Shown in pieces: positions 7,509 through 64,000 of a stretch of 64,000 bases of DNA. Location: NCBI GenBank assembly GCA_017507905.1, contig JAFWAA010000061.1, forward strand, positions 404 to 64,403, read 5' to 3'. The notes below the pieces were generated by a model. It saw only the letters and a list, made by a program, of their open reading frames with translations, did no database searches and had not been told where the DNA came from. The stretch's first letter is position 1; each line of letters begins with the position of its first letter. The position numbers and the translations under genes are program-made. Origin of the DNA: Clostridia bacterium (GTDB lineage Bacteria; Bacillota; Clostridia; Oscillospirales; CAG-272).

Positions 7509-9149
7509 ATGCAAAAGCAGGCAAAACGGCTATTCTGGAACGCGCTCCTTCTTGGCGCGGCCTCTCTCTTTATGCGCACGGTGGGCGTAAGCTTTCAGGT
7601 GCTTCTGGCCGGGCGCATAGGGGCGGAGGCCATGGGACTTTATTCCCTGATGGGAGGCGTGTACGGCTTTGCTCTGACGCTTGCCACCTCGGGGATCGGG
7701 CTCGGGGTGACGCGGCGCGTGACCGAAAACGTGGGAGAGGGACACCCCGAGCGCGTGCGCCCCACCCTTCGGCGCGCAACGCTCTACGCCTCAGGCTTCG
7801 GTCTGCTTGCCGCCCTTCTGCTCCTCGGTACGGCAAAGCCAATAGGGCTCCTCTGGCTCAAGGACGCGCGAACGGTGCGTCCCTTGCGTCTTTTTGCCCT
7901 TACCCTGCCCCTGATCGCCCTCTCCTCGGTATGGAGCGGCTACTTTACGGCGGTCCGCCGCCCCTACAAGAGCGCCGCCGCGCAGGTGAGCGAGCAGATC
8001 TGCAAGGTGGCGGCCACGCTGCTGCTCCTCTCCCTGCTCTCCCCCTCCGACGTGGAGAGCGCCTGCTGTCTCTTGGTTCTTGGCGGCACGGTTGCGGAGC
8101 TGCTCTCCTTCCTTTTGCAGCTGCTCCTCTACCTGCCCGACCGACGGCGGCATTTTGCCCGTGCAGAGACGGAAAGTGACGGACGTGAGGGCAGACGTCT
8201 GCTTGGCATTACCCTGCCCATCGCCTTTGCCGCCTACATCCGCTCCGCCCTTCTGACCCTGGAGCATATCCTCATTCCCGAGGGTCTACGCAACAGCGGA
8301 CACTCACACAAGGACGCGCTCACCGCCTACGGAAGCATTCAGAGCATGGCTCTGCCCGTGATCCTCTATCCCGCCGCGATCATCTCGGCCTTCTCCGGCC
8401 TTTTGATCCCCGAGATGGCCGAAAGCCGCGTCCGAGGCGGGGAGAAGCGCATCTCCTATATGATCGGCAGGGTCTGGTCGCTCTCCCTGCTCTTTTCCAT
8501 CGGGGTGGCAGGGGTGCTGCTCTCCTTCTCGGGCACGGTCGGCGAGGCACTTTATCCTGGCACGCAGACCGCACATTACCTGCGCATTCTCGCGCCCCTG
8601 ATCCCCATTATGTACGTAGACACCGCCACCGACGCCATTCTCAAGGGGCTTGGCGAGCAGGTCTACTGCATGAAGGTGAACATCGCCGACGCCCTGCTCT
8701 CCGTGATCCTGGTCACCCTGCTCATTCCGCGCCTCGGGATCCTCGGCTACGTGGTGACCATCTACGTCTCCGAGCTTCTCAACACCGTGCTCAGCGTGCA
8801 CCGCCTGCTCTGCATCCGCCCCTTGCAGGTAAGGCTTTTCAAGTGGGTCTACAAGCCCCTTCTCTCCATCGTCGGAGCAACCGCCATGGCAAGGCTGCTG
8901 CTCTCGCGGATCGGTCAGCTTCCGACAAGCCCCTTCGCCGCGATCAGCCTTTGCTCGGCTCTTACCCTGGTCCTCTATCTGCTGCTTCTCCTCTTGACGG
9001 GAGGACTGGAGCGCGAGGACGTGCGCTGGCTGACCTCTCTGTTCCGTCCGCGGACGGAGGCGCCCTCAGAGGAAAAGCCTTCTGAACTGTCTGCCCTCAA
9101 GCGCCGCCGCAAGCGTGGGCTGAAGGAGGGTGACGTCCGCCACGAGTGA
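7509..9149 (+). CDS. spoVB: stage V sporulation protein B / MurJ-type (MOP family) flippase
   Basis: ORF 7503-9149. The second ATG (7509) has better spacing from AGGAG. Polytopic membrane protein with a SpoVB-like N-terminus (...LAGRIGAEAMGLYSLMGGVYGFALTLATSGIGLGVTRRVTE). Confidence 0.8.
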   Translation: MQKQAKRLFWNALLLGAASLFMRTVGVSFQVLLAGRIGAEAMGLYSLMGGVYGFALTLATSGIGLGVTRRVTENVGEGHPERVRPTLRRATLYASGFGLLAALLLLGTAKPIGLLWLKDARTVRPLRLFALTLPLIALSSVWSGYFTAVRRPYKSAAAQVSEQICKVAATLLLLSLLSPSDVESACCLLVLGGTVAELLSFLLQLLLYLPDRRRHFARAETESDGREGRRLLGITLPIAFAAYIRSALLTLEHILIPEGLRNSGHSHKDALTAYGSIQSMALPVILYPAAIISAFSGLLIPEMAESRVRGGEKRISYMIGRVWSLSLLFSIGVAGVLLSFSGTVGEALYPGTQTAHYLRILAPLIPIMYVDTATDAILKGLGEQVYCMKVNIADALLSVILVTLLIPRLGILGYVVTIYVSELLNTVLSVHRLLCIRPLQVRLFKWVYKPLLSIVGATAMARLLLSRIGQLPTSPFAAISLCSALTLVLYLLLLLLTGGLEREDVRWLTSLFRPRTEAPSEEKPSELSALKRRRKRGLKEGDVRHE

Positions 9150-9626
9150 ATGCGGCTTCTTCTCGGGATCGTCCTGCAGCATGGGGACGAAATAAACGCA
9201 CTTGCGCGAGAGAAGCGTGGCGATGTTGCGCAGATTGGCCGAGAGGGCGTCGTTTGAGGCAAGCGAAATGATCAGGGGCGCGTCACGCCGCAGATGCGCC
9301 TTTGCCGCCATGCAGACCGCCGTGTCGGTAATGCCGTTGGCGATCTTAGCAAGCGTATTCCCCGTGCAGGGCGCAAGGATCAGCGCCTCGAGCCGAATGG
9401 CAGGACCGAGCGGCTCGGCATCCACCACCGTGTGAATGATCTCCCTTCGGCAAAGCGTCTCCACGGCTCGGCGAAGCTCCTCGGCGCGTCCAAAGCGCGT
9501 GTCGGTGCGCCAGACCGTTTCGCTGAAGATGGGCTGGATCTCATATCCGCTCTGCACCAGACGCTCAAGCTCGCGAAGGGAGCTTGCGTGCGTGCAGAAG
9601 GATCCGCAAAAGGCATAGCCAAGCAT
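9066..9626 (-). CDS. dpaB: dipicolinate synthase subunit B (flavoprotein)
   Basis: MLGYAFCGSFCTH...LILAPCTGNTLAKIANGITDT matches the SpoVFB/DpaB flavoprotein family. ATG at 9626 follows AAAGGGGGG and lies 1 nt after the dpaA stop. Confidence 0.88.
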   Translation of the reverse strand: MLGYAFCGSFCTHASSLRELERLVQSGYEIQPIFSETVWRTDTRFGRAEELRRAVETLCRREIIHTVVDAEPLGPAIRLEALILAPCTGNTLAKIANGITDTAVCMAAKAHLRRDAPLIISLASNDALSANLRNIATLLSRKCVYFVPMLQDDPEKKPHSLVADVTLLQPTLAAALEGRQFRRLFL

Positions 9627-9627
9627 T

Positions 9628-18117: not shown

Positions 18118-20175
18118 TCATGCCTTGCGCATAAATTCCTTCAAGGAGTATTCCTCCTTGATCTGCTTGTTCTTGCGAATGATCAGCACGGCAAGGACCG
18201 CCGCAAAGAGGCCGACGATGGCCCAGCCGAGAATGGGCATCCAGAGAGAGCCAAACTCGCGCGTGGTAAAGAGCGTGCCAAAGAAGAAGACGAGAAATCC
18301 AACCGAATAGCCAACGCCCAGCTGCAGCCCAATGCCTGCAAAGAGCCACTTCTTGCTCTTGATCTCTGCGTTCATCGCACCGATGGCGGCAAAGCACGGA
18401 GGCGTAAAGAGGTTAAACATCAGATACGCCAGAGCGGCAACCTTGGTGATCGCCATAATGGCGGCCACCTCTCCTCCTCCGCCAACCATCTCCAGGGATT
18501 CGGCGTCGATCAGATGCTCAAGGCCGACAAAGCACACGGCCAGCGTTCCGACGACGTTCTCCTTGGCGATAAAGCCGGTGATGGCCGCGGCGGCAAGCTG
18601 CCAGGCAACCACGCCGACGATGGGAGCAAAGAGGTAGGCAAAGGGGGTAGCGACCGTGGCAAGAATGGAGTCCTTGGCGTTCTCCACGGGCTGGAAATTC
18701 CAGCCGAAGCTCTGCATCAGCTGGACGGCAAAGTTGCAGACCAGAATGATGGTTCCCGCCTTGACGATGTAGGCCCAGCCGCGCTGGCACATGGAGAGGA
18801 ACGCCTTTCCAAAGCTCGGCGCCTTGTACTCGGGAAGCTCAATGATAAAGAAGGATCTCTTTTTGCGGTTTCCGGTAATGGCGTTGACCAGCAGCGCGCC
18901 GAAGAAGATGATCGCAATACCGACGAAATACATCAGCGTGCCCACCCAGGAGGCCTCGCCAAAGAAGGCGCCTGCAAAAAGGGAGATCAGAGGAAGCTTT
19001 GCACCGCAGGGCATGAAGGGAGCGAGCATGGCCGTTGCCCTTCTCTCCCGCTCGTTGCGAATGGTGCGGCAGGCCATCACCCCGGGAACGGCACAGCCCG
19101 TGCCGATGATGAAGGGGATAACGGATTTGCCCGAAAGGCCGACCTTCTTGAAGATGGGGTCAAGCACCACGGTCACACGCGCCATGTATCCGCAATCCTC
19201 AAGCAGGGCCAGCAGGAAGTACATGACCATGACCAGGGGCAAAAAGCCAACGACCGCGCCGACACCGCCGATGATGCCGTCCACGATGATGGAAGCGAGC
19301 AAGGGGTTGGCGTTTTCCATAAGGCCTGCGACCCACTCGCCGAACAGATCAATAAAGGTAACCAGTCCCGGGATCGACCACTCGTTCTCCATTCCCTCGT
19401 TAAACACGTAGCCGTTGGCGATCCAATCGCCAAGCCATGCCTGCGAGATCTGGAACACCAGGAACATCACCACGGCAAAGATCGGAATACCAAGCCACTT
19501 GTTGGTCAGCACGGCGTCGATCTTATCCTGCGTGTTTTTCTCCTTGGTCAGGACCTTGCGGCTCTCCACCGTCTTGACGATGTCGTTGACAAAGGCAAAG
19601 CGTGCTCTGTCCGCGTGCTCCACTGCGTTCTTATCGGTCAGATCGATTTCTCCCTGCTCATAGGGGGCCTTCTGCCCTTTTCCAATAAGAGAGACTGCCG
19701 CGGCGACGACCTCCTTCATGCCCTTGGCAGAGGTGGAAACGGTATCCACGACCGGACAATTCAGCTTTTCCGCAAGCACCTTGGAGTCGATCCTGGTCTC
19801 CTTCTTTTTGTTGACGTCCGCCTTGTTCAAGGCGACCACCACGGGGATCCCAAGCTCCAGAAGCTGCGTGGTGAAGAAAAGACTGCGGCTGAGGTTGGTG
19901 GCGTCCACGATATTGATGATCACGTCGGGATGCTCGTTTTGCACGTAAGCACTGGTAATGCTCTCCTCCGACGTGAAGGGGGACATCGAATACGCGCCGG
20001 GAAGGTCCACCGCGATCAGCTCCTCGTTGCCGCTGTAAAGGCTTTTCCTGATGGGATGCTCCTTCTTCTCCACGGTAACCCCCGCCCAGTTGCCCACCTT
20101 TTCGTTGCTACCGGTCAGGGCATTATACATGGTCGTCTTACCGCTGTTCGGATTGCCGGTCAAAGCAATTCTCAT
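18118..20175 (-). CDS. feoB: ferrous iron transport protein B
   Basis: ATG at 20175 follows AGGAGG. N-terminal G-domain MRIALTGNPNSGKTTMYNALTG, DLPGAYS, NKAD, then a polytopic permease domain. Confidence 0.95.
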   Translation of the reverse strand: MRIALTGNPNSGKTTMYNALTGSNEKVGNWAGVTVEKKEHPIRKSLYSGNEELIAVDLPGAYSMSPFTSEESITSAYVQNEHPDVIINIVDATNLSRSLFFTTQLLELGIPVVVALNKADVNKKKETRIDSKVLAEKLNCPVVDTVSTSAKGMKEVVAAAVSLIGKGQKAPYEQGEIDLTDKNAVEHADRARFAFVNDIVKTVESRKVLTKEKNTQDKIDAVLTNKWLGIPIFAVVMFLVFQISQAWLGDWIANGYVFNEGMENEWSIPGLVTFIDLFGEWVAGLMENANPLLASIIVDGIIGGVGAVVGFLPLVMVMYFLLALLEDCGYMARVTVVLDPIFKKVGLSGKSVIPFIIGTGCAVPGVMACRTIRNERERRATAMLAPFMPCGAKLPLISLFAGAFFGEASWVGTLMYFVGIAIIFFGALLVNAITGNRKKRSFFIIELPEYKAPSFGKAFLSMCQRGWAYIVKAGTIILVCNFAVQLMQSFGWNFQPVENAKDSILATVATPFAYLFAPIVGVVAWQLAAAAITGFIAKENVVGTLAVCFVGLEHLIDAESLEMVGGGGEVAAIMAITKVAALAYLMFNLFTPPCFAAIGAMNAEIKSKKWLFAGIGLQLGVGYSVGFLVFFFGTLFTTREFGSLWMPILGWAIVGLFAAVLAVLIIRKNKQIKEEYSLKEFMRKA

Positions 20176-51941: not shown

Positions 51942-51979
51942 AGAGGACTTCTCCAAAAGGAAGAAGCCCTCTTTTTTTC
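51942..51979 (+). terminator. rho-independent terminator of the methyltransferase gene
   Basis: agaggacttc pairs with gaagccctct (one mismatch), followed by a 7-nt T-run. Confidence 0.65.
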
Positions 51980-51980
51980 T

Positions 51981-52793
51981 TTATTCTGCGATCGAAAATA
52001 CCTTCTTGGCGTTCTCGGCAAGCATCCGTCGCATATCCTCCTCGGAAAAGCCGAGCGACAAAAGGGACGCAAGCTCCTCCCTGGGATGCCACATGGGGTA
52101 GTCCGTGCCGAACAGGACGCGATCCGTGCCAAAGCGCAGGATCAGCTCCCGCACGCGCTCGGGCGGCAAAAAGCCGAAGCAGGAGGAGGAATCCACGTAA
52201 AAATTCGGTGCCCCAGCGAGCATCCGCTCCGCGTCCTCCCAGACCGACCAGCCGCCAAGGTGCGCCCCCACGACGGTAAGCCCCTCAAAGATCTCGAGAA
52301 TGGGAAGCATCCGATTGGGATTGGAAAAATCGTAGCGGCGGTCGCCCGTGTGCATCAGAATGGGCAGTCCCTCCTCCTCGCAAAGCTCGTAGATGCGCAG
52401 GAAGCGGAAATCGTCGATCTTGAAGCGCTGAATGTCGGGGTGCAGCTTGACCCCGTGCAGACCGAGGCGCACGATCCTGCGGACGTCGCCCGTAAGGTCC
52501 TCGCTCTCGGGATGAAGCGTGCCAAGACCGGTCAGGCAACCCTTTCCCTGTGCAACCTCCTCGGCAATAAACTCGTTGATGCCCGTGACCTGCTTTGGTG
52601 TGGTGGCGACCGACTGGATCACGAAATGATCCACGCCGTGCGCAAGCCCCTCCTCCATCAGATCCTGCACCGTGCCGCGGCAGACCGAGTGCAGACCGTA
52701 AAAGGTATCCGTGCCCTCTACCGCGCGCGCCGCGATCTTTTCGGGGTAAACGTGGCAGTGCGCGTCAACGACCGCATAGCCTTGGCCGACCAT
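51981..52793 (-). CDS. amidohydrolase_2 (TIM-barrel metal-dependent hydrolase/decarboxylase) family protein
   Basis: 270 aa. VVDAHCHVYP (HxH), GVKLHP, ILMHTG, GTDYPMW. The ATG overlaps the upstream stop (TGATG). Confidence 0.8.
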   Translation of the reverse strand: MVGQGYAVVDAHCHVYPEKIAARAVEGTDTFYGLHSVCRGTVQDLMEEGLAHGVDHFVIQSVATTPKQVTGINEFIAEEVAQGKGCLTGLGTLHPESEDLTGDVRRIVRLGLHGVKLHPDIQRFKIDDFRFLRIYELCEEEGLPILMHTGDRRYDFSNPNRMLPILEIFEGLTVVGAHLGGWSVWEDAERMLAGAPNFYVDSSSCFGFLPPERVRELILRFGTDRVLFGTDYPMWHPREELASLLSLGFSEEDMRRMLAENAKKVFSIAE

Positions 52794-55327
52794 CAGGCAG
52801 TCACCACGCGGCTCGCCTTGTGCAGACCGAGCTTTTCGATGGCCTCCTCACGCATCTTGTACTTGAGGATCTTGCCTGCGGCATTCATCGGGAAGCCCTC
52901 GACGAAGTCCACGTACTTCGGCACCTTGTGGCGCGCCATGTGGTCGCCGACATACTTCTTCATCTCCTCGGCCGTCATGCTCTCGCCATCCTTGAGGACG
53001 ATGCAGGCCATGATCTCCTCGCCGTACTGCTCGTCGGGCACGCCGATGACCTGCACGTCGCGGACCTTGGGATGCGTGTAGATAAACTCCTCGATCTCCT
53101 TGGGATAGATGTTCTCGCCGCCGCGAATGATCATGTCTTTGAGGCGTCCCGTAATGCGGAAGTTTCCGTCCTTGGTGCGACAGGCAAGGTCACCCGTATG
53201 GAGCCAGCCCTCAGCATCAATGGCGGCCGCGGTGGCCTCGGGCATCTTGTAGTAGCCCTTCATCAGGTTGTAGCCGCGTGCCACGAATTCACCCGTGACC
53301 TCGTCGGGGCAATCCTCTCCCGTTTCGGGATTGACGATCTTGCACTCGATCTCGGGCAGGGGACGTCCGACCGTGCCCACGCGGACCTCGATGGGATCGT
53401 CCGTGGAGCTCATGGTGCAGCCCGGGGAGGCCTCGGTCTGGCCGTAAACGATGGTGATCTCCTTCATGTTCATCTTCTCGACCACGTCCTTCATCGTGGA
53501 GATGGGACAGGGGCTTCCCGCCATGATGCCCGTGCGCATATGCGCAAAGCTGGTCTTCTCAAAATCGGGATGCTCCAGGAGCGCGATAAACATGGTGGGC
53601 ACGCCGTGGAAGGCGGTGATGTGCTCGTTGTGAATGCAGGCAAGCGCGGGCTTGGGGGAGAAATACGGCAGGGGCAGAATGGTGCCTCCGTGCGTCATGG
53701 TCGCCGTCATGGCCAGCACCATGCCAAAGCAATGGAACATGGGCACCTGGATCATCATGCGGTCCGCGGTGGAGAGATCCATGCGGTCGCCGATGCATTT
53801 TCCGTTATTGACGATATTATAGTGCGTGAGCATAACGCCCTTGGGGAATCCCGTCGTGCCCGAGGTGTACTGCATATTGCAAACGTCGTCCTTGTTGACG
53901 GCGGCGGCCATGCGGTAGACCTCACGCAGAGGAACGCGTGCGGCTCTCTCGAGTGCCTCGTTCCAATCCATGCAGCCCCTCTGACGGAAGCCGACGGTGA
54001 TGACGTTGCGCAAAAAGGGCAAACGCTTGCTGTGCAGAGGAGAGCCCGTCTTGGTCTCAGCAAGCTCGGGGCAAAGCTCGGCAATGATCTTGCCGTAATG
54101 CGTATCCTTCGAGCCCTCGGTCAAGATCAAGGTATGCGTATCCGACTGCTTGAGCAGGTACTCGGCCTCGTGGATCTTGTAGGCCGTGTTGACCGTGACC
54201 AGCACCGCGCCAAGCTTTACCGTTGCCCAGAAGGCAATATACCACTGCGGCACGTTGGAGGCCCAGACCGCCACGTGCGATCCCGCCTTGACGCCAAGAG
54301 CGATCAGCGCGCGGGCAAATTCGTCCACGTCGTCGCGGAATTCGCTATACGTGCGCGTATAATCCAGCGTCGTATACTTGAAGGCGTACTGGTCGGGAAA
54401 TTCCTCGACCATGCGGTCAAGCACCTGCGAGAAGGTCGCGTCGATGAGCGCCTCCTTCTTCCAGACGTACTTGCCCGTGTGGGCCTTGTTATAGTAAAGC
54501 GCAGGCTCCTTGCGGGAGGTGTCGCTATACTGCTTCATGTAGTTGACGAACTGGGAGAAGATGATCTCCATGTCGTCCAGCTCCTCGCACCAGCGCGGAT
54601 CCCAGACCAGGGAGAGGAAGCCGTCGTAATTGACCGAGCGGAGCGCCAGCATCATGGACTTCAGGGGCAGCTCCCCTTCTCCGACCAGGCAATACTCGAG
54701 GCCGTCCTCGGTCATGCGCGCATCGCTGACGTGCACGTGACGGACGTAAGCGCCCAGATGCTTGATGACCTGCTCGGCGCTCTCGCCGCCTCCAAAGTAA
54801 GCGGCAGACAAATTCCAGAGTGCGCCCAGAAAGTCGCAGGCAAAGCGCTCGAGAAGCGTGCGCAGCGTCTCGGCACGGCAGAACAGACCAAAGGTCTCAA
54901 TCAGCAGAGTGATCCCCTTCTCCTCGGCCACCGGCAAAAGCGTTTCCAAGAGCCCTGCGATGCGCTCGATCGCCGCGGCGTTTTTCTCCGCACTGCCGGC
55001 GTCGCTCGCCTTGAGGCGGATAAAGGGAATGTGCAGATTGGAGGCGACCTCCATGCAGGAGAGGATCTCCTGCACGTCACGCTCTCCGTCCTGTGCCTTG
55101 CCAAGATCGCAAACGGTGTCCATGCAGACCACCGTCAGCTTCTTCTCGTACAGGCGCCGCAGAGTTGCCGCGCTGGCATAGCCGTGGAAGGCGCCGTCGC
55201 GGTCGGTGAACATCGCATTATAAATATTGTGCAGCTCGATGCCCTCAAATTTCAGATCCTCGGCAACGTCGCAAAACTCCTCAAAGCTGCGTCCGTGCCA
55301 GCCCTTGGTGGAAAAGGAAAGCTTCAT
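52793..55327 (-). CDS. fusion protein: xylose-isomerase-like TIM barrel plus AMP-forming acyl-CoA synthetase/ligase
   Basis: 844 aa. The first ~280 aa match the AP-endonuclease-2 / sugar-phosphate-isomerase fold (KFEGIELH, LLIETF, VRHVHVSD, YDGFLSLVWDP). The rest is an adenylate-forming enzyme (MQYTSGTTGFPKGV, WLHTGDLA, GRLKDMIIRGGENIYP, GKILK). GGAGG RBS. The ATG overlaps the upstream stop (ATGA). Confidence 0.85.
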   Translation of the reverse strand: MKLSFSTKGWHGRSFEEFCDVAEDLKFEGIELHNIYNAMFTDRDGAFHGYASAATLRRLYEKKLTVVCMDTVCDLGKAQDGERDVQEILSCMEVASNLHIPFIRLKASDAGSAEKNAAAIERIAGLLETLLPVAEEKGITLLIETFGLFCRAETLRTLLERFACDFLGALWNLSAAYFGGGESAEQVIKHLGAYVRHVHVSDARMTEDGLEYCLVGEGELPLKSMMLALRSVNYDGFLSLVWDPRWCEELDDMEIIFSQFVNYMKQYSDTSRKEPALYYNKAHTGKYVWKKEALIDATFSQVLDRMVEEFPDQYAFKYTTLDYTRTYSEFRDDVDEFARALIALGVKAGSHVAVWASNVPQWYIAFWATVKLGAVLVTVNTAYKIHEAEYLLKQSDTHTLILTEGSKDTHYGKIIAELCPELAETKTGSPLHSKRLPFLRNVITVGFRQRGCMDWNEALERAARVPLREVYRMAAAVNKDDVCNMQYTSGTTGFPKGVMLTHYNIVNNGKCIGDRMDLSTADRMMIQVPMFHCFGMVLAMTATMTHGGTILPLPYFSPKPALACIHNEHITAFHGVPTMFIALLEHPDFEKTSFAHMRTGIMAGSPCPISTMKDVVEKMNMKEITIVYGQTEASPGCTMSSTDDPIEVRVGTVGRPLPEIECKIVNPETGEDCPDEVTGEFVARGYNLMKGYYKMPEATAAAIDAEGWLHTGDLACRTKDGNFRITGRLKDMIIRGGENIYPKEIEEFIYTHPKVRDVQVIGVPDEQYGEEIMACIVLKDGESMTAEEMKKYVGDHMARHKVPKYVDFVEGFPMNAAGKILKYKMREEAIEKLGLHKASRVVTA

Positions 55328-56706
55328 GCCTGGACCTCCTCGTAAACGATCTTATTGATCGCGTTGATGTATGCACGGATGCTTGCACCGATGATGTCGG
55401 TGGAGATCCCGTTGCCCGAATAGAGCTTGCCGTCGGCGCGGAGCTTGACCAGAGCCGATCCCATGGCCTCCTTGCCCTCGGTGACCGCCTGGATCTGGAA
55501 ATCGTCCAGCTCGTAGCGGTGTCCGACGATCTGCTCGATGGCGCGGAAGGCGGCGTCGATCGGACCGTCACCGATGGAAATCCCCTGCATGGTCTCTCCG
55601 TTCTTCTCCATCGTGATCTGTGCGGTGGAGGAGATGACGTTGCCGTTGTTGACGACGTAAGCCTTGATCTGATAGGTCGCGGGGACCTGCAGAGCCACGC
55701 TCGCGATCACGGCCTCCAGCTCCTTGGAGCCGACCTGGCGGTTGCGGCTGACGCGGCAGAACTCCTCGTAGACCTTTGCGCGGTCCTCCTCGGAGAGATC
55801 GTAGCCAAGCTGTACGGCGGCCGCATCCACGGCCTCGCGCCCGTCGTTGGCGTCCAGACGGATCTCGGCCTGCTCGGCGGCAGGAGAGAGCACGAGCTTC
55901 TCGCTCTTTGCGCCGTCAATGATCCAACGGATCTGCTTGACGTTGCGGTGCAGCTCGGTCGCGCGGACGGCCGTGCAGAGCTCGTAGGTGTTTCCGCAAT
56001 TCTTGATCATATCCACGAAGGCCTCAAGCGAGACGGCCTCGCCCAAAACCGCCGTCTTGACGCCGTCAACGCCTGCACGGACGGCCAGAGCAGCCGATGC
56101 CGCGGCCATGCCGTTCTTATCGTTGCAGCGCACGTAAACGGGAACGGAGATGCGCTTGGCGATCTCCCCTGCAAAGGCGGCAAAATCGTCGGGCATCATC
56201 TCGGCGGCACTGTCGCAAAGGGTGACCGAGGTCGCGCCCGCGCCGATAGCGGCCTGCAAAGCGGCCTCAAGCACCTCGCGCTCGGCGCGCGTGGCGTCCA
56301 CGGCGCAAAGCTCCACGTCGGGGCAGGCCTGCTTTGCCTCGGCCACGCAGGCAGCGATCCACTCGATCATCTTGGGTGCCTTCTTGTGGCAGGCATACTC
56401 CATTCCCACGGGAGAGACGGGCAGCTCGATGCGGATACGGGGATGGGCGGCACCCGAAAGCGCCGCGGCCGCCAGGGCCACGCTTCCCGCTGCCATACCT
56501 GCGCCAACCGAAAGCACGCTTCCCTTAACGAAGGAGGAAACCGTGCGCACGAGCAGGGAGTCGGTCTTGGCATTGGTGATCTCGGGGAGCTCGATGGCGT
56601 CCACGTTCAGCTTCTCCAGCTGACGGGCGATCTCGATGCGCTCCTTGAAGCTGAGGGCGCCCTCAGCGCTCAAAAGCGTTGTGTCTGCAATTCTGATCTG
56701 TTTCAT
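55324..56706 (-). CDS. 2-isopropylmalate synthase-like protein with degenerate catalytic motifs and an intact LeuA regulatory domain
   Basis: ATG at 56706 follows AAAGGAGAGG. HMGL-like barrel in which DTTLRDGEQ is DTTLLSAEG and H-x-H-D-D-L-G is VRCNDKNG. C-terminal LeuA-dimer domain (GDGPIDAAFRAIEQI...GISTDIIGASIRAYINAINK). Confidence 0.75.
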   Translation of the reverse strand: MKQIRIADTTLLSAEGALSFKERIEIARQLEKLNVDAIELPEITNAKTDSLLVRTVSSFVKGSVLSVGAGMAAGSVALAAAALSGAAHPRIRIELPVSPVGMEYACHKKAPKMIEWIAACVAEAKQACPDVELCAVDATRAEREVLEAALQAAIGAGATSVTLCDSAAEMMPDDFAAFAGEIAKRISVPVYVRCNDKNGMAAASAALAVRAGVDGVKTAVLGEAVSLEAFVDMIKNCGNTYELCTAVRATELHRNVKQIRWIIDGAKSEKLVLSPAAEQAEIRLDANDGREAVDAAAVQLGYDLSEEDRAKVYEEFCRVSRNRQVGSKELEAVIASVALQVPATYQIKAYVVNNGNVISSTAQITMEKNGETMQGISIGDGPIDAAFRAIEQIVGHRYELDDFQIQAVTEGKEAMGSALVKLRADGKLYSGNGISTDIIGASIRAYINAINKIVYEEVQA

Positions 56707-56751: not shown

Positions 56752-57020
56752 GAAAATAAACAAGCCCCCGGGATCGGCCAATACCGATCCCGGGGACGAA
56801 AAAACACTTTCGCGGTACCACCCCGGTTGCTGCCATAGCAGCCACCTTTTTCCGAATTCCAACAAATTCTCTGCCATGATAACGGGGCAAGCCGTAGACG
56901 CTTACTGGACTTCAGCACCTCTGCTCCGGAATGAGACTTCCCTTCTCGCTCACGCCGACTCGCACCTACCGTCGGCTCTCTGAGGTGAGGAATGAAAAGC
57001 GGAATAATTCCTTCAACGCA
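56752..57020 (-). promoter_or_regulatory. T-box riboswitch leader, specifier CUC (Leu)
   Basis: Minus strand. Stem I (57020-56922) has a K-turn UGC-GUUGA...GGA-GCA, AG bulge AGAGAG, distal loop GGUAGGUGCGA, and specifier CUC-A at 56935-56932. F-box-like CCGUUA is present. T-box core GGGGUGGUACCGCG lies at 56824-56811. The terminator is a 12-bp stem (56766-56777 / 56784-56795) followed by a U-run. Confidence 0.85.
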
Positions 57021-57043
57021 TTTACATTTGAATGATGGAAATG

Positions 57044-57072
57044 ATTATAGCACGCTTTTCCCCTTTTGTCAA
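57044..57072 (-). promoter_or_regulatory. sigma-A type promoter of the Leu T-box operon
   Basis: On the minus strand: TTGACA (57072-57067), 17-bp spacer, TATAAT (57049-57044). Confidence 0.7.
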
Positions 57073-57134: not shown

Positions 57135-57674
57135 TCAGGCCTCGTAATCCGCGCCCAGCTGCATTGCCTTGAGGTTGACCTCAAGCATATCCGCGCGCTT
57201 GGCGGAAATGACCTTCCTCAGTGCGGCCTCGACCTTTTCCACGTCGAACTGTCCAAGCTCCTTGAGGATCTTGCCCAGAAGGATCATGTTGGCAAGCGTG
57301 GGCGTGCCGTTGTCGCTCGCCATCTGCGTGGCGGGGATCTTGACCAGCTTGACGTCTTTTCTCTCGATGTCTCTTGCGATCAGCGTGGAGTCGGCAAAGA
57401 TGATGCCGCCCGGCACCACCGCAGACTCAAAGCGATCGAGGGACGGAAGGTTCATGGCCACCAGAACGTCGGGATTGGAGACGATGGGAGAGCCCACGGG
57501 CGTGTCGCTGACGATCACGCTGCAGCTCGCCGTTCCGCCGCGCATCTCGGGACCGTAGGAAGGAAGCCAGCTGACCTGCTTATCCTCGGTCAATCCCTTA
57601 TACGCCATCAGCTTTCCGACGAACAGAATGCCCTGTCCGCCAAAGCCGGAGAACAAAAACTTGGTTGTACTCAT
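57135..57674 (-). CDS. 2-oxoacid:ferredoxin oxidoreductase, gamma subunit
   Basis: 179 aa. [22 protein letters not shown]... AGGAGG RBS. The start overlaps the beta-subunit stop. Confidence 0.88.
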
Positions 57675-58426
57675 TTCTCTGCCTCCTGACTTGCCGATCT
57701 GTCCTTATAGACACCCAAGGGGTAATACGGCAGCATTTTTTCGTCGATCCACTCCAGCGCCTGCTTGGGCGTCATGCCCCAGTTGGTGGGACAGGAGGAA
57801 ACGACCTCGACCAGAGAAAAGCCCTTGCCGTCGATCTGATTCTGGAAGGCCTTCTTGATGGCCTTCTTGGCGTTCTTGACGTTCTTGACGTTATTGACGG
57901 TCACACGCTCAAGATACTCGGGGCCCTCAAGCTCGGAGAGCAGTTCGCAAACGCGAATGGGGTATCCGCAATGCTTGACGTCGCGTCCGTAGGGCGAGGT
58001 CTGCGTGACCTGGCCGGGGAGCGAGGTGGGAGCCATCTGTCCGCCCGTCATGCCGTAGATCGCATTGTTGACGAAGATGACCGTGATGTTCTCGTTGCGC
58101 GCGGCGGCGTGCACCGTCTCGGCCATACCGATGGACGCGAGGTCACCGTCACCCTGATAGGTGAAGACCACGTTCTCGGGATTGGCGCGCTTAACGCCCG
58201 TAGCGACTGCGGGAGCGCGTCCGTGCGCCGCCTCGATCATGTCGCAGTTGAAGTAATCGTAAGCCATGACCGAGCAGCCGACCGGTGCGATACCGACCGT
58301 CTTGCCCTCAATGCCAAGCTCATCCATGACCTCGGCCACCAGGCGGTGAATGATGCCGTGGGTGCAGCCGGGGCAATAATGCAGAGGAAGATCTGCCAAT
58401 GCGTTAGGCTTCTGAAAAACGATCAT
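57671..58426 (-). CDS. 2-oxoacid:ferredoxin oxidoreductase, beta (TPP-binding) subunit
   Basis: 251 aa. [10 protein letters not shown] and GDGDLASIG (TPP motif). GGAGG RBS. Confidence 0.9.
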
Positions 58427-59496
58427 TCGTTCTTACCTCCATTCTTTGCAGCCTTAAGGATCGCGTCAAGCACCTGCTCGGGGGACGGGATCATTCCGCC
58501 CACGCGATTGCACAGGGTGACGGGAACGCGGCACTCGGTGGCCAAACGAACGTCCTCGATCATCTGTCCCATGGACAGCTCTACCGAAATGACCTCCTTG
58601 ACCTGCTCTGCCGCGCGGCGGAAGGGTGCCTTCGGGAAGGGCCAAAGCGTGATGGGACGGATCATACCGACCTTAATGCCCATCGCTCTTGCCTCGTCGA
58701 TGGCGTTCTTCGATACGCGAGCGGCAATACCGAAGGCGGCAATGCAGATCTCTGCATCCTCCATGCGGTATTCCTCGTACATCGTTTCCTTCTCCTCGAT
58801 CACGCGATAGCGATCGTAGCGCTCAAAGTTGGTCTCTTCGAGCTTTTCGGGAGAGAGGAACAGAGAGTTAATCACGTTATGCGGACGCTTCATGCCCGTT
58901 CCCGTCACGGCCCAAGGCTTCTCGGGCATGGGGGTCACGGGGAGATCGTCCAGGGCCACGGGCTCCATCATCTGTCCCATGGTTCCGTCGGCCAGGATCA
59001 TGGCCGTCATGCGATAGGTATCCGCCAGAGCAAAGCCCTTTACGGTCAGCTCTGCCATCTCCTGCACCGAGGAGGGGGCAAGAACGATCATGCGGAAGTC
59101 GCCGTGTCCGCCGCCCTTGGTGGCCTGGAAATAATCCGACTGGCTGGGCTGAATGCCGCCAAGTCCCGGGCCGCCGCGCTGGACGTTGACCACAAGCGAG
59201 GGCAGGTCCGCACCGGCAAGGTAGGAAAGTCCCTCACTCTTGAGCGAAATTCCGGGGCTGGAGGAGGAGGTCATCACGCGGCGTCCTGCCGCTGCAACGC
59301 CGTAGACCATGTTAATGGCCGCGATCTCACTCTCGGCCTGCAGAAACACGCCGCCGATCTTGGGCATTCTCTTGGCCATGTAGGCCGCGATCTCGGTCTG
59401 GGGAGTAATGGGATAGCCGAAGTAGTGGCGGCAGCCTGCACGAATGGCCGCTTCCGCGATGGCTTCGTTTCCCTTCATCAAAACCTTATCTGCCAT
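58423..59496 (-). CDS. 2-oxoacid:ferredoxin oxidoreductase, alpha subunit (VorB/KorA-like)
   Basis: [36 protein letters not shown]...[17 protein letters not shown] at 59496 follows AAGGTGA (a GTG at 59505 is also possible). Confidence 0.88.
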
Positions 59497-59505
59497 ATTC
59501 TTCAC

Positions 59506-59712
59506 TCACCTTTCCACTTCAATGATGCAGTCGGGGCACATGGTCGCGCAGAAGGCGCAGCCGATGCAGGCCTCCTCGTTGGCGGCCTCCACGGGGTGGT
59601 GTCCCTTTTGGTTGATCTTGTCGGGGGACAGACGAAGGACCTGCTTGGGGCAGGCGTCAACACAAAGCCCACAGCCCTTGCATTTGTCGGTCTTAAAGGT
59701 TAATTTTGCCAT
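59506..59712 (-). CDS. 2-oxoacid:ferredoxin oxidoreductase, delta subunit (2x[4Fe-4S] ferredoxin)
   Basis: 68 aa. CKGCGLCVDACP and CIGCAFCATMCP. Confidence 0.9.
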   Translation of the reverse strand: MAKLTFKTDKCKGCGLCVDACPKQVLRLSPDKINQKGHHPVEAANEEACIGCAFCATMCPDCIIEVER

Positions 59713-59738: not shown

Positions 59739-60398
59739 TTAACAAATTTTTTCTTGCAGGTCAAGGGGGAAAAGCCCCTCGATCTGCTCCTTGAGCGTCT
59801 CGTAAAGAGATGCGCGCACGGTCGTCATGCGTACGGGAAGCCCCGATGCGCGGCTGACCTCCTCGGCGTACCGGAGGGAGGCAAGCACGTCCTCGGGAGA
59901 GGTCATCTCACCGAGATTGGAATTGTTGACCAGGCCCGTAAAGCGCATTCCGCAAGCGGTCTCGATCTCCCCAAGCACCTCAAGCGTGGAGGGGACGTCC
60001 TGCGTCAGCGGGCGGTAGCAATTGATGACCGCCAGCATTTCGTAGTTCCCTTCCTCGCGCAGTGCGGGAGAAATGCGTCCCAGCGCCAGCGCGCCGCGAT
60101 CGTCGCCGCCAACGTCGATCACCGCAGAGCGGCTCTTATCGTCCGTGATGGCGTAAAGGTCGGCCGGGAGCGCGGGAATATCCAGATTGGTGTTGGCGTA
60201 TTCCGAGCAGATCAGGCGAATGCCTGCCGCCTCCAGCTCCTTGCGGCTGTCCTTGGTTCGGAAATAGGGATTGACGATGTCCAGGTCTGCGACCGTGACC
60301 TCCTCCCCGCTCCGCCGAAGATGAAGGGCATAATTGACGGCAATATTGGTCTTGCCGCTACCGTAATGCCCGCAAAAAAGCGTTACCCGTTTTTTCAT
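59739..60398 (-). CDS. P-loop NTPase (MinD/ParA/CooC-like) of unknown role
   Basis: About 219 aa. Walker A CGHYGSGKTN, DLDIVNPYF, VIDVGGDD. Sits between the acyl-CoA synthetase and the oxidoreductase genes. Confidence 0.7.
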   Translation of the reverse strand: MKKRVTLFCGHYGSGKTNIAVNYALHLRRSGEEVTVADLDIVNPYFRTKDSRKELEAAGIRLICSEYANTNLDIPALPADLYAITDDKSRSAVIDVGGDDRGALALGRISPALREEGNYEMLAVINCYRPLTQDVPSTLEVLGEIETACGMRFTGLVNNSNLGEMTSPEDVLASLRYAEEVSRASGLPVRMTTVRASLYETLKEQIEGLFPLDLQEKIC

Positions 60399-60410
60399 AC
60401 ACAAAAAGCC

Positions 60411-62702
60411 TCAAAGCATATTGCGGCGGATCTTGCCGCTGGTGGTCTTGGGAAGCTCGTCGCGGAAGACGACCAGACGCGGATACTTGTAGGGAGCGGT
60501 ATGCTCCTTGACGTAGCGCTGGATCTCCTTCTTGAGCTCCTCGGTGGGCTCGGTGCCGGGCGTCAGAACGATGCTCGCCTTGACGATCTGTCCGCGCACC
60601 TCGTCGGGAGCGGCCGAAACGCCGCACTCGAGAACGTAAGGAAGCTCCATGATGACGCTCTCGATCTCAAAGGGACCGATGCGGTAGCCCGAGGACTTGA
60701 TGACGTCGTCCACGCGGCCGACGTACCAGTAGAAGCCGTCCTCATCGCGCCACGCGGTGTCTCCCGTATGGTAGTAGCCGTCGTGCCAAGCCTCGGCGGT
60801 CTTCTCAGGATCGTTGTAGTAGCCCACGGAAAGTCCGCAGGGATAGCCGTTTTTGAGGCTGACGACGATCTCGCCCGTCTCACCCACGGCCACGGGATTG
60901 CCCTCGGCGTCCACCAGCTCCACGTCGTAGATCGGTGCGGGCTTGCCCATCGAGCCGATCTTATGCGGCGCACCCGTCATGTTTCCGATGATCATGGTGC
61001 TCTCGGATTGACCAAAGCCCTCGAGGATCTGCAATCCCGTTGCCTTCTCGAACTGACGGTAGACCTCGGGGTTGAGTGCCTCGCCCGCCGTGGTCATGTG
61101 CTGGACCGAGGAGAAATCGTACTTGGAAATATCCTGCTTGATCATCATGCGCAGCATCGTGGGAGGTGCGCAGAAGGTGGTGATGCCGTACTTGGCAAAC
61201 ATGGGAAGGATATCCGAGGCGTCGAAGCGGTCGAAATCGTAAACGAAGGTGGCCGCCTCGCAGAGCCACTGGCCGTAGAACTTGCCCCACATGGATTTTG
61301 CCCAGCCCGTATCCGAGATGGTAAAGTGCAGGCCGTCGGGATCCACGTTGTGCCAGTATTTTGCCGTATGGAAATGTCCAAGCGGATACTTGTAGTTATG
61401 TGCGGCAATCTTGGGATAGCCCGAGGTGCCCGACGTAAAGAACATCAGCATCAGATCGTCGCCGCCCGGTGCATTCTCCGGACGCTTGTAGTGCGTGCTG
61501 TAAAGCGTGTATTCCTCGTCAAAGCTTCTCCAGCCCTCGCGCTCGCCGCCAACCAGCATCTTGTGCTTGAGGGTGGGAGAGGAGGCGGCGGCAAGCTCCA
61601 CCTGCTCTGCCACGCCGTCGTCGGCGGTGCAGATGATGGCAGAGATGCCTGCGCTCTTGAAGCGATACTCAAAATCGTGCGCCTGGAGCTGGTTGGTGGC
61701 GGGAATGCCGATGGCACCCAGCTTGTTCAGTCCGAGCATGGCGGCCCAGAACTGGTAATGCCGCTTGAGCACCAGCATCACGCGGTCGCCCTTCTTGATG
61801 CCGAGCGACTTGAAGTAGTTGGCACACTGGGCAGACATCTTCTTCATGTCCTTGAAGGTGAAGCGACGCTCGGTCTTGTCCTTGGAGACGTGCAGCATGG
61901 CCAGACGGTCAGGCTCGCGCTCGGCGAGGGCGTCGATCAGATCAAAGGCGAAGTTGAAGTTGTCGATATTCTGGAATTGGATCGAGGTAGGCGTGCCGTT
62001 CTCGTCGACCTCGGTCTTGATAAAGCGGTGATAGATGCGCTCGCGATCGTCCCTCTTGGGTGCGCGCGCAGGCTCGCGAATGGCCTTGGTGGGGGTCAAT
62101 TCGGGAATGGGCTCGCCCGTGGGATTGAGAACGATGGCGTAGAATACGCAATCCTTTCCGCCAACGGCGATCATGCCGTGCGGCGTGTCACTGTCAAAGT
62201 AGATGCTGTCACCGGGGCCCAGCACCTCGCGATGCTCGCCCACCTGCACCATCAGCTGTCCCTCCACGACGAGGTCGCATTCCTGGCCTGCGTGCGTGGT
62301 CAGCTCAATGTCCCTTTGCTGTGCCTCGGGATCATAGGTGCTGCGCACGTACAGCGGCTCGGCAATACGGTTCTGGAAGGCGTAGGCCAGGTTGTAGTAG
62401 GTCATGCCGTGCGCCTGTGCGATCTTCTGTCCCGCACCCGCACGGGTGACGGTAAAGGATTTCAGCGTCGGGCTCTGACCCTCGATGATATCGGTAACGT
62501 TGACGTTGAGCGTCATGGCGCAGCGATAGATGAACGCAAAGTTCAGATCGCTCTCGCCCGACTCACAGCGAATGTATTCGGCAACGTCCACACCCGTCTT
62601 CTGCGCCATCTCCTCGGGGGAAAGCCCCTCGATCTCGCGCAGCTCGCGGATACGCGCCGCCATTTCCCGGATCTTAAAATCCAGTCCCTTCATTTGTTCC
62701 AT
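60411..62702 (-). CDS. fusion protein: XRE-type HTH plus cupin plus medium-chain-type AMP-forming acyl-CoA synthetase
   Basis: ATG at 62702 follows AAAGGGGA. HTH (IRELREIEGLSPEEMAQKTGVDVAEYIRCESGES), cupin (GQECDLVVEGQL...GDSIYFDSDTPHG), then the ACS (FFTSGTSGYPK, YHTGDTAWRDEDGFYWYVGRVDDVIKSSGYRIGPFEIES, SGKIRR). Confidence 0.85.
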   Translation of the reverse strand: MEQMKGLDFKIREMAARIRELREIEGLSPEEMAQKTGVDVAEYIRCESGESDLNFAFIYRCAMTLNVNVTDIIEGQSPTLKSFTVTRAGAGQKIAQAHGMTYYNLAYAFQNRIAEPLYVRSTYDPEAQQRDIELTTHAGQECDLVVEGQLMVQVGEHREVLGPGDSIYFDSDTPHGMIAVGGKDCVFYAIVLNPTGEPIPELTPTKAIREPARAPKRDDRERIYHRFIKTEVDENGTPTSIQFQNIDNFNFAFDLIDALAEREPDRLAMLHVSKDKTERRFTFKDMKKMSAQCANYFKSLGIKKGDRVMLVLKRHYQFWAAMLGLNKLGAIGIPATNQLQAHDFEYRFKSAGISAIICTADDGVAEQVELAAASSPTLKHKMLVGGEREGWRSFDEEYTLYSTHYKRPENAPGGDDLMLMFFTSGTSGYPKIAAHNYKYPLGHFHTAKYWHNVDPDGLHFTISDTGWAKSMWGKFYGQWLCEAATFVYDFDRFDASDILPMFAKYGITTFCAPPTMLRMMIKQDISKYDFSSVQHMTTAGEALNPEVYRQFEKATGLQILEGFGQSESTMIIGNMTGAPHKIGSMGKPAPIYDVELVDAEGNPVAVGETGEIVVSLKNGYPCGLSVGYYNDPEKTAEAWHDGYYHTGDTAWRDEDGFYWYVGRVDDVIKSSGYRIGPFEIESVIMELPYVLECGVSAAPDEVRGQIVKASIVLTPGTEPTEELKKEIQRYVKEHTAPYKYPRLVVFRDELPKTTSGKIRRNML
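61137..61223. repeat. 87-nt block identical to 63816-63902 (inside paralogous acyl-CoA synthetase genes)
   Basis: cttgatcatcatgcgcagcatcgtgggaggtgcgcagaaggtggtgatgccgtacttggcaaacatgggaaggatatccgaggcgtc occurs in both copies. The flanking sequence is clearly diverged. Confidence 0.9.
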
Positions 62703-63089: not shown

Positions 63090-64000
63090 TCAAAGCTTGT
63101 TTCTCTGGATCTTTCCGCTGATGGTCTTGGGAAGCTCATCGCGGAAGACGACGATACGCGGATACTTGTAAGGCGCGGTATGTTCCTTGACGTACTGCTG
63201 GATCTCCTTCTTGAGTGCCTCGGTGGGCTCGGTTCCCTTGACCAGCACGACGCTGGCCTTGACGACCTGTCCGCGCACCTCGTCGGGGGCTGCGGAGACG
63301 CCGCACTCAAGGACGTAGGGCAGCTCCATGATGACGCTCTCGATCTCAAAGGGCCCAATGCGGTAGCCCGAGGACTTGATGACGTCATCCACGCGGCCAA
63401 CGTACCAGAAGAAGCCGTCCTCGTCACGCCACGCGGTGTCGCCCGTGTGGTAGAGGCCATCATGCCATACCTCGTCGGTCTTTTCCTGATTTTTGTAGTA
63501 TCCCGCAAACAGCCCACAGGGGATCTTCTTGTCGGTGTGAATGACGATCTCGCCGACCTCACCCACGGGAACGGGGTTGCCGTCGGGATCGACCAGATCC
63601 ACGTCGTAGAAGGGCACGGGACGGCCCATCGAGCCGAGCTTGTGTGCGCCTCCCATAAGGTTGGCGATGGTAAGGGTGGTCTCGGTCTGTCCGAAGCCCT
63701 CCATGGTCTGCAGGCCCGTGGCCTCCTCAAACTTGCGGTAGACCTCGGGGTTGAGTGCCTCGCCTGCCGTGGTCATGTGACGAATGGAGGAAAGATCGTA
63801 CTTGCTGATGTCCTCCTTGATCATCATGCGCAGCATCGTGGGAGGTGCGCAGAAGGTGGTGATGCCGTACTTGGCAAACATGGGAAGGATATCCGAGGCG
63901 TCAAAGCGATCAAAGTCATAGGTAAAGACCGCACCCTCGCAGAGCCACTGGCCGTAGAGCTTGCCCCAGAGGGCCTTGCCCCAGCCCGTATCCGAGATGG
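63090..64000 (-). CDS. medium-chain-type AMP-forming acyl-CoA synthetase, paralogue (N-terminus outside window)
   Basis: The frame is open to the window edge (...ISDTGWGKALWGKLYGQWLCEGAVFTYDFDRFDASDILPMFAKYG...SGKIQRNKL). It is closely related in protein and DNA sequence to the C-terminal part of 60411-62702. Confidence 0.88.
   Translation of the reverse strand, partial: ISDTGWGKALWGKLYGQWLCEGAVFTYDFDRFDASDILPMFAKYGITTFCAPPTMLRMMIKEDISKYDLSSIRHMTTAGEALNPEVYRKFEEATGLQTMEGFGQTETTLTIANLMGGAHKLGSMGRPVPFYDVDLVDPDGNPVPVGEVGEIVIHTDKKIPCGLFAGYYKNQEKTDEVWHDGLYHTGDTAWRDEDGFFWYVGRVDDVIKSSGYRIGPFEIESVIMELPYVLECGVSAAPDEVRGQVVKASVVLVKGTEPTEALKKEIQQYVKEHTAPYKYPRIVVFRDELPKTISGKIQRNKL
63816..63902. repeat. 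87-nt block identical to 61137-61223
   Basis: See the 61137-61223 repeat entry. Confidence 0.9.

Follow-up and report, generated by a model that had tools for sequence, protein, structure and literature searches.

What is a xylose-isomerase-like TIM barrel doing at the front of an acyl-CoA ligase, and why should such a protein be made under the control of leucine? The question is raised by a gene in a 64,000-nucleotide stretch of DNA from a Clostridia bacterium (contig JAFWAA010000061.1, positions 404 to 64,403; hereafter the window), whose open reading frame (ORF; 52793..55327, − strand, ATG start) encodes 844 residues spanning both parts. The gene lies in an operon that runs, in order, from a promoter and a leucine-specific T-box leader through a gene for a LeuA-like protein, here called pLeuA (460 aa), and the fusion (844 aa) to an Amidohydro_2 gene (270 aa). 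From the sequence evidence set out below, we give about an even chance to the reading that leucine starvation induces a ligase whose substrate is isovalerate or a close analogue, the CoA ester then being reductively carboxylated on the way to leucine, which makes the fusion the best candidate yet for the isovalerate-activating enzyme of rumen and gut anaerobes.

The fusion architecture is genuine. Three Pfam matches cover the protein: AP_endonuc_2 (PF01261; aa 20-242, 6e-22, 79 bits against a cutoff of 31), AMP-binding (PF00501; aa 304-693, 5e-94, profile positions 2-384 of 384) and AMP-binding_C (PF13193; aa 744-819, 2e-19, profile positions 1-76 of 76). The gene comprises, all on the − strand, a xylose-isomerase-like barrel domain with a remodelled metal site (PF01261; aa 1-265, 54533..55327), a conserved inter-domain linker (aa 266-299, 54431..54532) and an AMP-forming acyl-CoA ligase domain (PF00501 and PF13193; aa 300-844, 52793..54430 with the stop codon). 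The motifs IELH, LLIETF, HVHVSD, GFLSLVWDP, TSGTTGFPKGV, GRLKDMIIRGGENIYP and GKILK can be read along its length. Its GC content by codon position (0.82 at third positions, GC3, vs 0.39 at second positions, GC2) follows the same pattern as in the neighbouring genes; a 916-aa ORF on the + strand (52595-55345) spans the entire fusion gene and was taken as a shadow ORF typical of GC-rich coding DNA. The fusion start overlaps the pLeuA stop (ATGA) and the fusion stop overlaps the Amidohydro_2 start (TGATG), so that the translational coupling on both sides that had been described in a first-pass annotation of this DNA is present. A full-length AlphaFold2 (AF2) model, built from a shallow alignment of sequences 76-86% identical, reached a mean predicted local distance difference test (pLDDT) score of 66 and a predicted template-modelling (TM) score of 0.43, too low to be informative on a fixed interface between barrel and ligase; the linker has low pLDDT in the models, yet it contains the invariant residues N280, T284, G285, W289, K291, L294, T298 and F299.

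A scan for the barrel domain with one genome per species gave 227 genomes, and 80 loci were fetched. The fusion is present in at least 120 protein clusters and in at least 227 species-level genomes of Oscillospirales from gut and rumen. The fetched loci all come from gut or rumen metagenome-assembled genomes (MAGs), labelled Acutalibacteraceae, Oscillospiraceae, Eubacteriales or ‘Clostridia’, and the window is 97% identical to a MAG from dairy-cattle caecum. The trivial explanation, an assembly or frameshift artefact joining two genes, could draw on the gene being split in two on some long-read metagenome contigs (L087, L088 and L093) and on the two parts being separate genes in other taxa. 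The splits, however, are the reverse artefact, frameshifts inside a fused gene; the barrel continues into the ligase in one frame in 80/80 loci, and the best 120 protein clusters (75-93% identity), which are independent and come from many studies and assemblers, are without exception 832-844 aa long with the same three domains. The linker, moreover, has its invariant residues, and the domain order is opposite to that of the unfused pairs, where the ligase comes before the barrel. This survey across genomes, which the first-pass annotation had called for, refutes an artefact origin, and we give it next to no credence. The description of the fusion as unusual holds against characterised enzymes, but not among gut Oscillospirales, where it is common, and the pairing also occurs as separate adjacent genes; where the best 120 clusters bear an NCBI name at all, it is just ‘AMP-binding protein’.

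The leader upstream of the operon is a T-box. A sigma-70 promoter (57044..57072, − strand; TTGACA, a 17 nt spacer and TG-n-TATAAT) matches the consensus at 12/12 positions with an extended −10 element, and is followed by a T-box leader (56789..57025, − strand) that scores 120.4 bits with the Rfam model RF00230, against a gathering threshold of 93. The specifier loop reads GAA-GU-CUC-A, in which CUC is a leucine codon, the T-box core sequence is GGUGGUACCGCG, and an intrinsic terminator (56764..56797, − strand), with a 15-bp stem and a T-run behind it, shares sequence with the 3′ helix of the T-box. A second intrinsic terminator (51942..51972, − strand; 13-bp stem and T-run) closes the operon; the gene beyond it is convergent and encodes an RlmL-type methyltransferase. 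An Rfam scan of the window returned this one T-box only. Among related loci, the T-box core lies 5′ of pLeuA in 66 of 69, and the specifier is mostly CUC, with CUG in five, a synonymous change that argues for selection on leucine specificity. The leucine T-box control that had been proposed from the DNA alone is thus confirmed at sequence level, by a 120-bit RF00230 match, a leucine specifier and its conservation in dozens of species with two synonymous codons.

Fusions of a sister clade carry leucine T-boxes as well. At L087 (CUG), L088 (CUC) and L092 (CUC), the T-box lies 5′ of the fusion with no pLeuA between them, suggesting that the control targets the fusion itself. The L087 T-box scores 99.9 bits with Rfam; those of L088 and L092 were missed at the Rfam gathering threshold, had to be picked up with the T-box core pattern and inspected visually, and are weaker evidence. 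We do not claim two independent origins of the leucine T-box, since the ligases of these three loci are 72-79% identical to that of the window and a single origin in the common ancestor is simpler. The L092 T-box lies ~340 nt further upstream than the L087/L088 position. At another sister-clade locus, L093, an rve-family integrase/transposase gene (4795-5745) stands directly 5′ of the fusion at that L087/L088 position, and no T-box was found upstream of this fusion.

Judged by its profiles and motifs, the ligase is an ordinary member of the known ANL superfamily, an AMP-forming acyl-CoA synthetase. It is complete, as had been noted before: PF00501 and PF13193 match at full length, and against the ANL motif set (A3 TSGTTGxPKG, A5 YGxTE, A7 TGD, A8 GRxKDxxxxxGxxxxP and the A10 catalytic lysine in GK) we read A3 as YTSGTTGFPKGV, A5 as YGQTE, A7 as HTGD, A8 as GRLKDMIIRGGENIYP and A10 as AAGKILK. 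The core motifs do not vary across 57 sequences, and constraint on the protein is strongest in the ligase, with 79-98% identity across loci and ratios of non-synonymous to synonymous substitution rates (dN/dS) of 0.007-0.03. The best of 111 ligase models for the fusion is NCBIfam PRK12583 (684 bits, below its cutoff of 832), which aligns aa 290-835 with model positions 11-556 of 558. The end-to-end alignment and the full ANL motif set resemble the ACSF2/YngI-type synthetases of this family, which go by the KEGG-style name ‘fatty-acyl-CoA synthase’, whereas the sub-cutoff score, the N-terminal TIM barrel, the coupling to a dead LeuA and the leucine T-box do not. Sequence matches in the PDB cover mainly aa 475-827, none being a close homologue, and unfused orthologues of 553-554 aa are 55-60% identical to the fusion ligase. 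No carrier-protein gene lies within the operon. We found no characterised substrate for this ligase subfamily in literature searches, and know of none.

A functional analogue may be MbcS, the methylbutyryl-CoA synthetase of Staphylococcus aureus, which activates exogenous short branched-chain acids to CoA esters at the expense of ATP, the kind of reaction that we propose here. The two differ in that MbcS has neither barrel nor T-box and serves fatty-acid priming. Identity is ~26% when the fusion ligase is compared with an MbcS-like neighbour, and the MbcS model NF047394 (cutoff 850) does not rank in the top 25 for the fusion. Isovalerate is a poor substrate of purified MbcS, which favours 2-methylbutyrate and isobutyrate (PMC10026030).

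These elements can be assembled into a scheme. Uncharged tRNA-Leu is predicted to stabilise the antiterminator, allowing read-through into the operon. The ligase domain, as the catalytic core, would use ATP and CoA to turn external isovalerate (or a short branched acid very similar to it) into isovaleryl-CoA, which the 2-oxoacid:ferredoxin oxidoreductase VorDABG, encoded next to the operon, would reductively carboxylate to 2-oxoisocaproate; a branched-chain aminotransferase (IlvE) would then yield leucine. Two MbcS-like ligases encoded nearby would serve 2-methylbutyrate and isobutyrate, for isoleucine and valine, giving three ligases for three amino acids with one shared Vor. The poor use of isovalerate by MbcS fits such a division of labour. 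The operon anatomy, the leucine T-box, the integrity or loss of domains, synteny and purifying selection are seen in the sequences themselves; we infer which acid is activated, which way the flux runs, and what the barrel, pLeuA and the amidohydrolase do.

The physiology of the rumen pathway, in which isovalerate is carboxylated to make leucine, is established (Allison et al. 1966, as cited in PMC7356843). The locus supplies a ligase, VorDABG and, in relatives, IlvE, all of which fit this pathway, as do its rumen and hindgut hosts; by contrast, the classical pathway needs no TIM barrel, LeuA-like protein or amidohydrolase. Isovalerate is expected to be plentiful in both the rumen and the hindgut.

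The Vor cluster (57135..59712, − strand) consists of VorD, a 2x[4Fe-4S] ferredoxin (59509-59712), VorA (58423-59505), VorB (57671-58426) and VorG (57135-57674), with Pfam matches to POR_N/PFOR_II, TPP_enzyme_C, POR and Fer4 over the cluster. The alpha subunit passes the VorB-type model PRK07119 (543 bits vs cutoff 399); the beta and gamma subunits have Pfam matches and fall below the specific NCBIfam cutoffs. VorA/B/G genes lie upstream in ~55 of the 80 loci, and a class-IV branched-chain aminotransferase (IlvE) gene stands between VorG and the T-box in the inspected loci L004, L010, L016, L020 and L043, at about 3100-4250 of each; the window, L001 and L002 lack it, with ~110 nt between VorG and the T-box. 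The earlier suggestion of isovalerate activation feeding the neighbouring oxidoreductase is therefore supported by the Vor linkage, the aminotransferase and the MbcS-like ligases, but not by the position of the oxidoreductase genes, which lie upstream of the T-box promoter on the same strand and are not under the T-box.

If the ligase performs the chemistry, what is the barrel for? A search of 1.8 billion cluster representatives returned 781 barrel relatives at E<=1e-10, among them more distant fusions and numerous standalone proteins (265-280 aa). For the barrel domain, the AF2 model has a pLDDT of 86.7, and its top Foldseek matches are Art22, SCO6571, AsbF, UlaE and ketose 3-epimerases (TM 0.70-0.77, 13-24% identity), with probability 1.00 for Art22, AsbF and UlaE; a profile search of the PDB gave Art22 at 1e-14 and AsbF at 7e-13. 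The domain thus has the PF01261 fold of the Art22 isomerase (8z1i/9koj), AsbF (3dx5), UlaE, ketose 3-epimerases and IolI, but differs from Art22, AsbF, UlaE and IolI in being joined to a ligase and in having lost two of four metal ligands in the window clade. Our literature search on the reaction of Art22, the closest solved barrel, found nothing among the papers covered.

The canonical site of such barrels, Glu-Asp-His-Glu at the ends of β5 to β8 in the AF2 model, is not found in the window protein. Among 119 relatives of a distant fusion, P0202, mostly standalone proteins with some fusion fragments, all four ligands are invariant: Glu (IET), Asp (LWDxxH), His (HxH) and Glu (SLEW); P0202 itself and the distant fusion P0186 keep them too. 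The window protein retains E144 and H199, with N172 at the Asp position and V241 at the last Glu position; E31, H33, H197 and D202 likewise belong to the barrel residues that are still conserved. Across the window clade, the β8 Glu is Val in 117/120 sequences, the β6 Asp position varies (N 70, Q 25, E 13, D 7, H 5), the His after it is Ser, and five other family-invariant positions (S71, D108, N146, K201 and R245) are relaxed, while R33 is fixed as His and H197 and E217 are new clade-invariant residues. In the window clade, the ancestral active site is, on this comparison, dismantled. Despite the ligand loss, the barrel is under purifying selection (dN/dS 0.05-0.11). The motif GFLSLVWDP, which had been taken as a barrel signature, is indeed there, but it is exactly where the invariant metal-binding Glu has turned into Val; likewise, the proposed coupling of an isomerase- or dehydratase-type barrel to adenylation holds for the fold, whereas, with the metal site lost, it may fit the ancestor better. 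The fused barrel would accordingly seem to be an accessory, docking or regulatory module rather than a second chemical step.

A comparable fate may have befallen pLeuA (55324..56706, − strand; HMGL-like, 5.9e-24). The 460-aa protein consists of a barrel (aa 1-260) and a LeuA_dimer regulatory domain (aa ~326-460, nt 55327-55731; PF08502, 1.8e-31, profile positions 2-130 of 131). Its true start is the ATG at 56706, preceded by AAAGGAGAGG; the start at 56877 of the mechanically called ORF falls within the T-box and cannot be used. The protein resembles the 2-isopropylmalate synthase LeuA in its barrel, linker subdomain and LeuA_dimer domain and in its position behind a leucine T-box, and differs from it in the active site. 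Relative to Listeria LeuA (3ewb), DTTLRDGEQ has become DTTLLSAEG and HCHDD has become RCNDK, both aligned with high posterior probability, and PED-ATR reads AVD-ATR, so that the DRE-TIM metallolyase site is left without its Arg, its metal-binding Asp and its two metal-binding His. The loss of the RDGEQ and HxH motifs holds across 72 orthologues, and NCBIfam models for LeuA, CimA and NifV all score far below cutoff (best 257 bits vs 532). The label ‘LeuA-like’ is hence right for the fold and wrong for the catalytic site, where RDGEQ is LSAEG and HxH is R-C-N; a working LeuA it is not.

The regulatory domain is the best-conserved part of pLeuA, with a mean column identity of 86% vs 72% for the barrel and dN/dS of 0.006-0.08 vs 0.07-0.15. 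The gene lies 5′ of the fusion in 79/80 loci, and NCBI labels the family ‘hypothetical protein’. These features suggest that pLeuA is a probable pseudoenzyme, a non-catalytic LeuA derivative, which may act as an accessory, docking or regulatory module without adding a second chemical step. Leucine feedback on the ligase through pLeuA is one possibility. A stronger version, in which pLeuA would sense leucine, dock on the non-catalytic fused barrel and switch the isovalerate-CoA ligase off when leucine is plentiful, strikes us as rather unlikely. If true, it would mean dual control, with tRNA-Leu charging acting on the RNA and free leucine on the protein, and a pseudoenzyme descended from a biosynthetic enzyme would serve as allosteric subunit in the very salvage route that has taken its place.

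Intermediate stages of this arrangement survive in other genomes. A Ruminiclostridium contig (L081) has separate adjacent genes for Amidohydro_2, ligase (60% identical to that of the window) and barrel; a JGI contig and Vulcanibacillus have the two genes as a pair, ligase first and barrel second, and the barrel gene stands alone at other loci. The distant fusion P0202, with a ligase 58% identical to that of the window, has no T-box. In the sister clade, the ligase is 72-79% and the barrel 36-38% identical to those of the window, the barrel metal site is intact in the fused relatives checked, and the operons appear to hold the fusion alone. At L089/L090, where the barrel is 40% identical and keeps its Asp and Glu, a dead pLeuA overlaps the fusion start; we therefore rejected a strict rule by which the presence of pLeuA would mean loss of the barrel site. 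Together, the comparisons make it likely that pairing came first, followed by fusion, the leucine T-box, pLeuA and then loss of the barrel metal site.

Identity to the window across loci falls from 79-98% in the ligase to 61-68% in the barrel, 60-69% in pLeuA and 50-65% in the amidohydrolase, and pairwise dN/dS places the ligase, the barrel and both parts of pLeuA under purifying selection. In L002 (MAG RGIG438), the ligase and amidohydrolase are 96-98% identical to those of the window (synonymous divergence, dS, ~0.35), and the barrel and pLeuA 81-82% (dS ~1.2). The pattern suggests recombination, with a breakpoint at or close to the domain junction of the fusion. Directly upstream of the unfused amidohydrolase-ligase-barrel trio of L081 lies a gene for a SIR2-family deacylase (4480-5259), which may be a functional linkage; the A10 lysine of AMP-forming acyl-CoA synthetases is deacetylated by sirtuins, which regulate these enzymes in this way.

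The last operon gene (51981..52793, − strand) encodes a 270-aa Amidohydro_2 protein (PF04909, 2.6e-35, 123 bits). Its D10, H12 and H14 (D-x-H-x-H) are invariant in 42 orthologues, no NCBIfam family matched it, and its best PDB match is the uncharacterised BB4693 (3irs, 3.8e-16). It is absent from ~35-40% of operons, which then end at the fusion.

Several of these observations weigh against isovalerate activation for leucine. The closest NCBIfam model, PRK12583, is that of a generic ‘fatty acid CoA ligase’, with the score short of its cutoff. About 25 of the 80 loci have no Vor within 4.6 kb upstream, with unrelated genes instead, and the sister-clade T-box fusions are not beside Vor. The ancestral ligase/barrel pair and trio occur without a T-box, so that the ancestral substrate need not relate to leucine, and the intact sister-clade barrel under leucine control suggests barrel chemistry beyond plain isovalerate activation. 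The simple model has no task for the amidohydrolase, whose metal ligands are retained, and leucine binding by pLeuA is conjectural. We put this reading at no better than even because we infer the substrate, because Vor linkage is not universal and the ancestral module not leucine-controlled, and because of the intact sister-clade barrel under the T-box and the amidohydrolase that is left without a role.

Some of the same facts would be explained if the barrel, ligase and Amidohydro_2 protein together converted another leucine-related compound into isovaleryl-CoA or 2-oxoisocaproate, with the barrel as isomerase, epimerase or dehydratase, the amidohydrolase as decarboxylase, hydratase or lactonase, and a ligase substrate that is not isovalerate itself, for example a hydroxy-, unsaturated or carboxylated C5-C7 acid. 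Ligase and barrel, with or without Amidohydro_2, are an old recurrent module in Bacillota; in the broad family, the four metal ligands and the basic residues R33, K201 and R245 are invariant, as expected of a real enzyme with an anionic substrate; intact-barrel fusions of the sister clade are under leucine T-boxes; the amidohydrolase keeps its HxH motif; and the newly fixed His33, His197 and Glu217 of the window clade lie on the catalytic face and could form a re-tooled site. Yet in that same clade the β8 Glu is Val in 117/120 and the β6 Asp and five family-invariant positions vary, ~35-40% of operons do without the amidohydrolase, the sister-clade operons appear to hold the fusion alone, and the neighbourhoods yield no candidate substrate. 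We consider this alternative possible but fairly unlikely.

The ligase might also spare leucine instead of supplying it, by turning isovalerate from outside the cell into isovaleryl-CoA, with which iso-branched fatty acids would be primed; scarce leucine would then not have to be degraded for the primer, much as MbcS functions in Staphylococcus. Vor can run in either direction, which suits this idea, and T-box control makes sense for any activity that eases the demand for leucine. MbcS also provides a precedent for primer supply from exogenous branched acids (PMC10026030). The conserved adjacency to a branched-chain aminotransferase, however, points to amino-acid formation, and the neighbourhoods inspected contain no fatty-acid synthesis genes (FabH and the like); we hold sparing to be decidedly unlikely, noting that sparing and synthesis are not mutually exclusive. 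Very improbable, in our view, is a catabolic or secondary-metabolic unit unrelated to leucine, its T-box a leftover of a former leuA leader, for instance with an AsbF-like dehydratase as the source of an aromatic acid for activation by the ligase and decarboxylation by the amidohydrolase. The barrel-family profile matches AsbF, a 3-dehydroshikimate dehydratase, at 7e-13, with Foldseek ranking it fourth; AsbF works with an adenylating enzyme in petrobactin synthesis, where in the AsbF/AsbC pair the barrel product is adenylated by a separate enzyme, a resemblance that does not imply homology of the pathways. PF04909 includes hydroxybenzoate decarboxylases, and pLeuA looks like a leuA relic behind an old leader. 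A decaying leader is hard to reconcile, though, with specifier, T-box core and terminator being intact in 66/69 window-clade loci with synonymous specifier changes, with leucine T-boxes at three sister-clade loci that lack pLeuA, or with purifying selection on pLeuA; moreover, the AsbF-type metal site is gone in the window clade, and the barrel is no closer to AsbF than to generic ketose epimerases.

Isovalerate activation for leucine, if correct, would give a pathway known since the 1960s a concrete and widespread candidate, found among the Oscillospirales of herbivore and human-type guts in at least 227 species-level genomes, and the built-in signal of the leucine T-box makes it directly testable. 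In the literature we found no gene assignment for the isovalerate-activating enzyme of the rumen pathway, an isovaleryl-CoA synthetase being mentioned in a single plant paper only, and nothing relevant on the barrel-ligase-amidohydrolase trio, on T-box-regulated acyl-CoA synthetases or on a bacterial isovalerate-CoA ligase; as far as we found, the barrel-ligase architecture, its conserved pairing with a dead LeuA, the step-by-step loss of the barrel site and the leucine T-box control have no prior description. The locus offers two apparent examples of enzymes turned into accessory proteins, a LeuA without catalysis that keeps its regulatory domain and an isomerase-type barrel with a dismantled metal site, the latter dismantled, it would seem, only after fusion and recruitment of pLeuA, with intermediate stages surviving in sister clades. 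It also suggests a possible feedback mechanism based on a pseudoenzyme. In practical terms, these assignments would replace ‘AMP-binding protein’ and ‘hypothetical protein’ by better annotation and improve gut models of branched-chain amino-acid and fatty-acid exchange.

Elsewhere in the window, the other ORFs scanned are housekeeping genes (PolA, DnaE, MetRS, EF-G, RF1 and others); no leu or ilv genes were found among them outside the cluster, homoserine dehydrogenase being the sole amino-acid-biosynthesis gene. On the L087 contig of the sister clade, by comparison, convergent LeuB-, LeuD- and LeuC-type genes (Iso_dh, Aconitase_C and Aconitase; 16438-19149) indicate that this lineage has at least part of the canonical leucine pathway, and a LigB and AMMECR1 fusion protein (11838-13247) is encoded downstream of the T-box fusion. 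At L048, a leucyl-tRNA synthetase-like ORF (leuS; 1137-3542), judged from its N-terminal sequence, replaces Vor upstream of the operon.

The remaining genes around the Vor cluster are all on the − strand. A P-loop protein (59739-60404, 221 aa), weakly ParA/CbiA-type (E ~2e-4), is encoded between VorD and the first MbcS-like ligase, and the second MbcS-like ligase (63090-64000; Pfam AMP-binding, NCBIfam MbcS) is cut by the window end. The MbcS model gives the two ligases 432 and 295 bits, against its cutoff of 850. The first is part of an ORF of ~764 aa (60411..62702) in which helix-turn-helix (HTH_3) and Cupin_2 domains are fused in frame to the ligase with no stop between them; at L081, an MbcS-like ligase and an HTH-cupin regulator are separate adjacent genes (8869-11138) that adjoin the unfused trio. 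It is unusual for an acyl-CoA synthetase to bear a DNA-binding domain; the arrangement may link the sensing of a branched acid to its activation.

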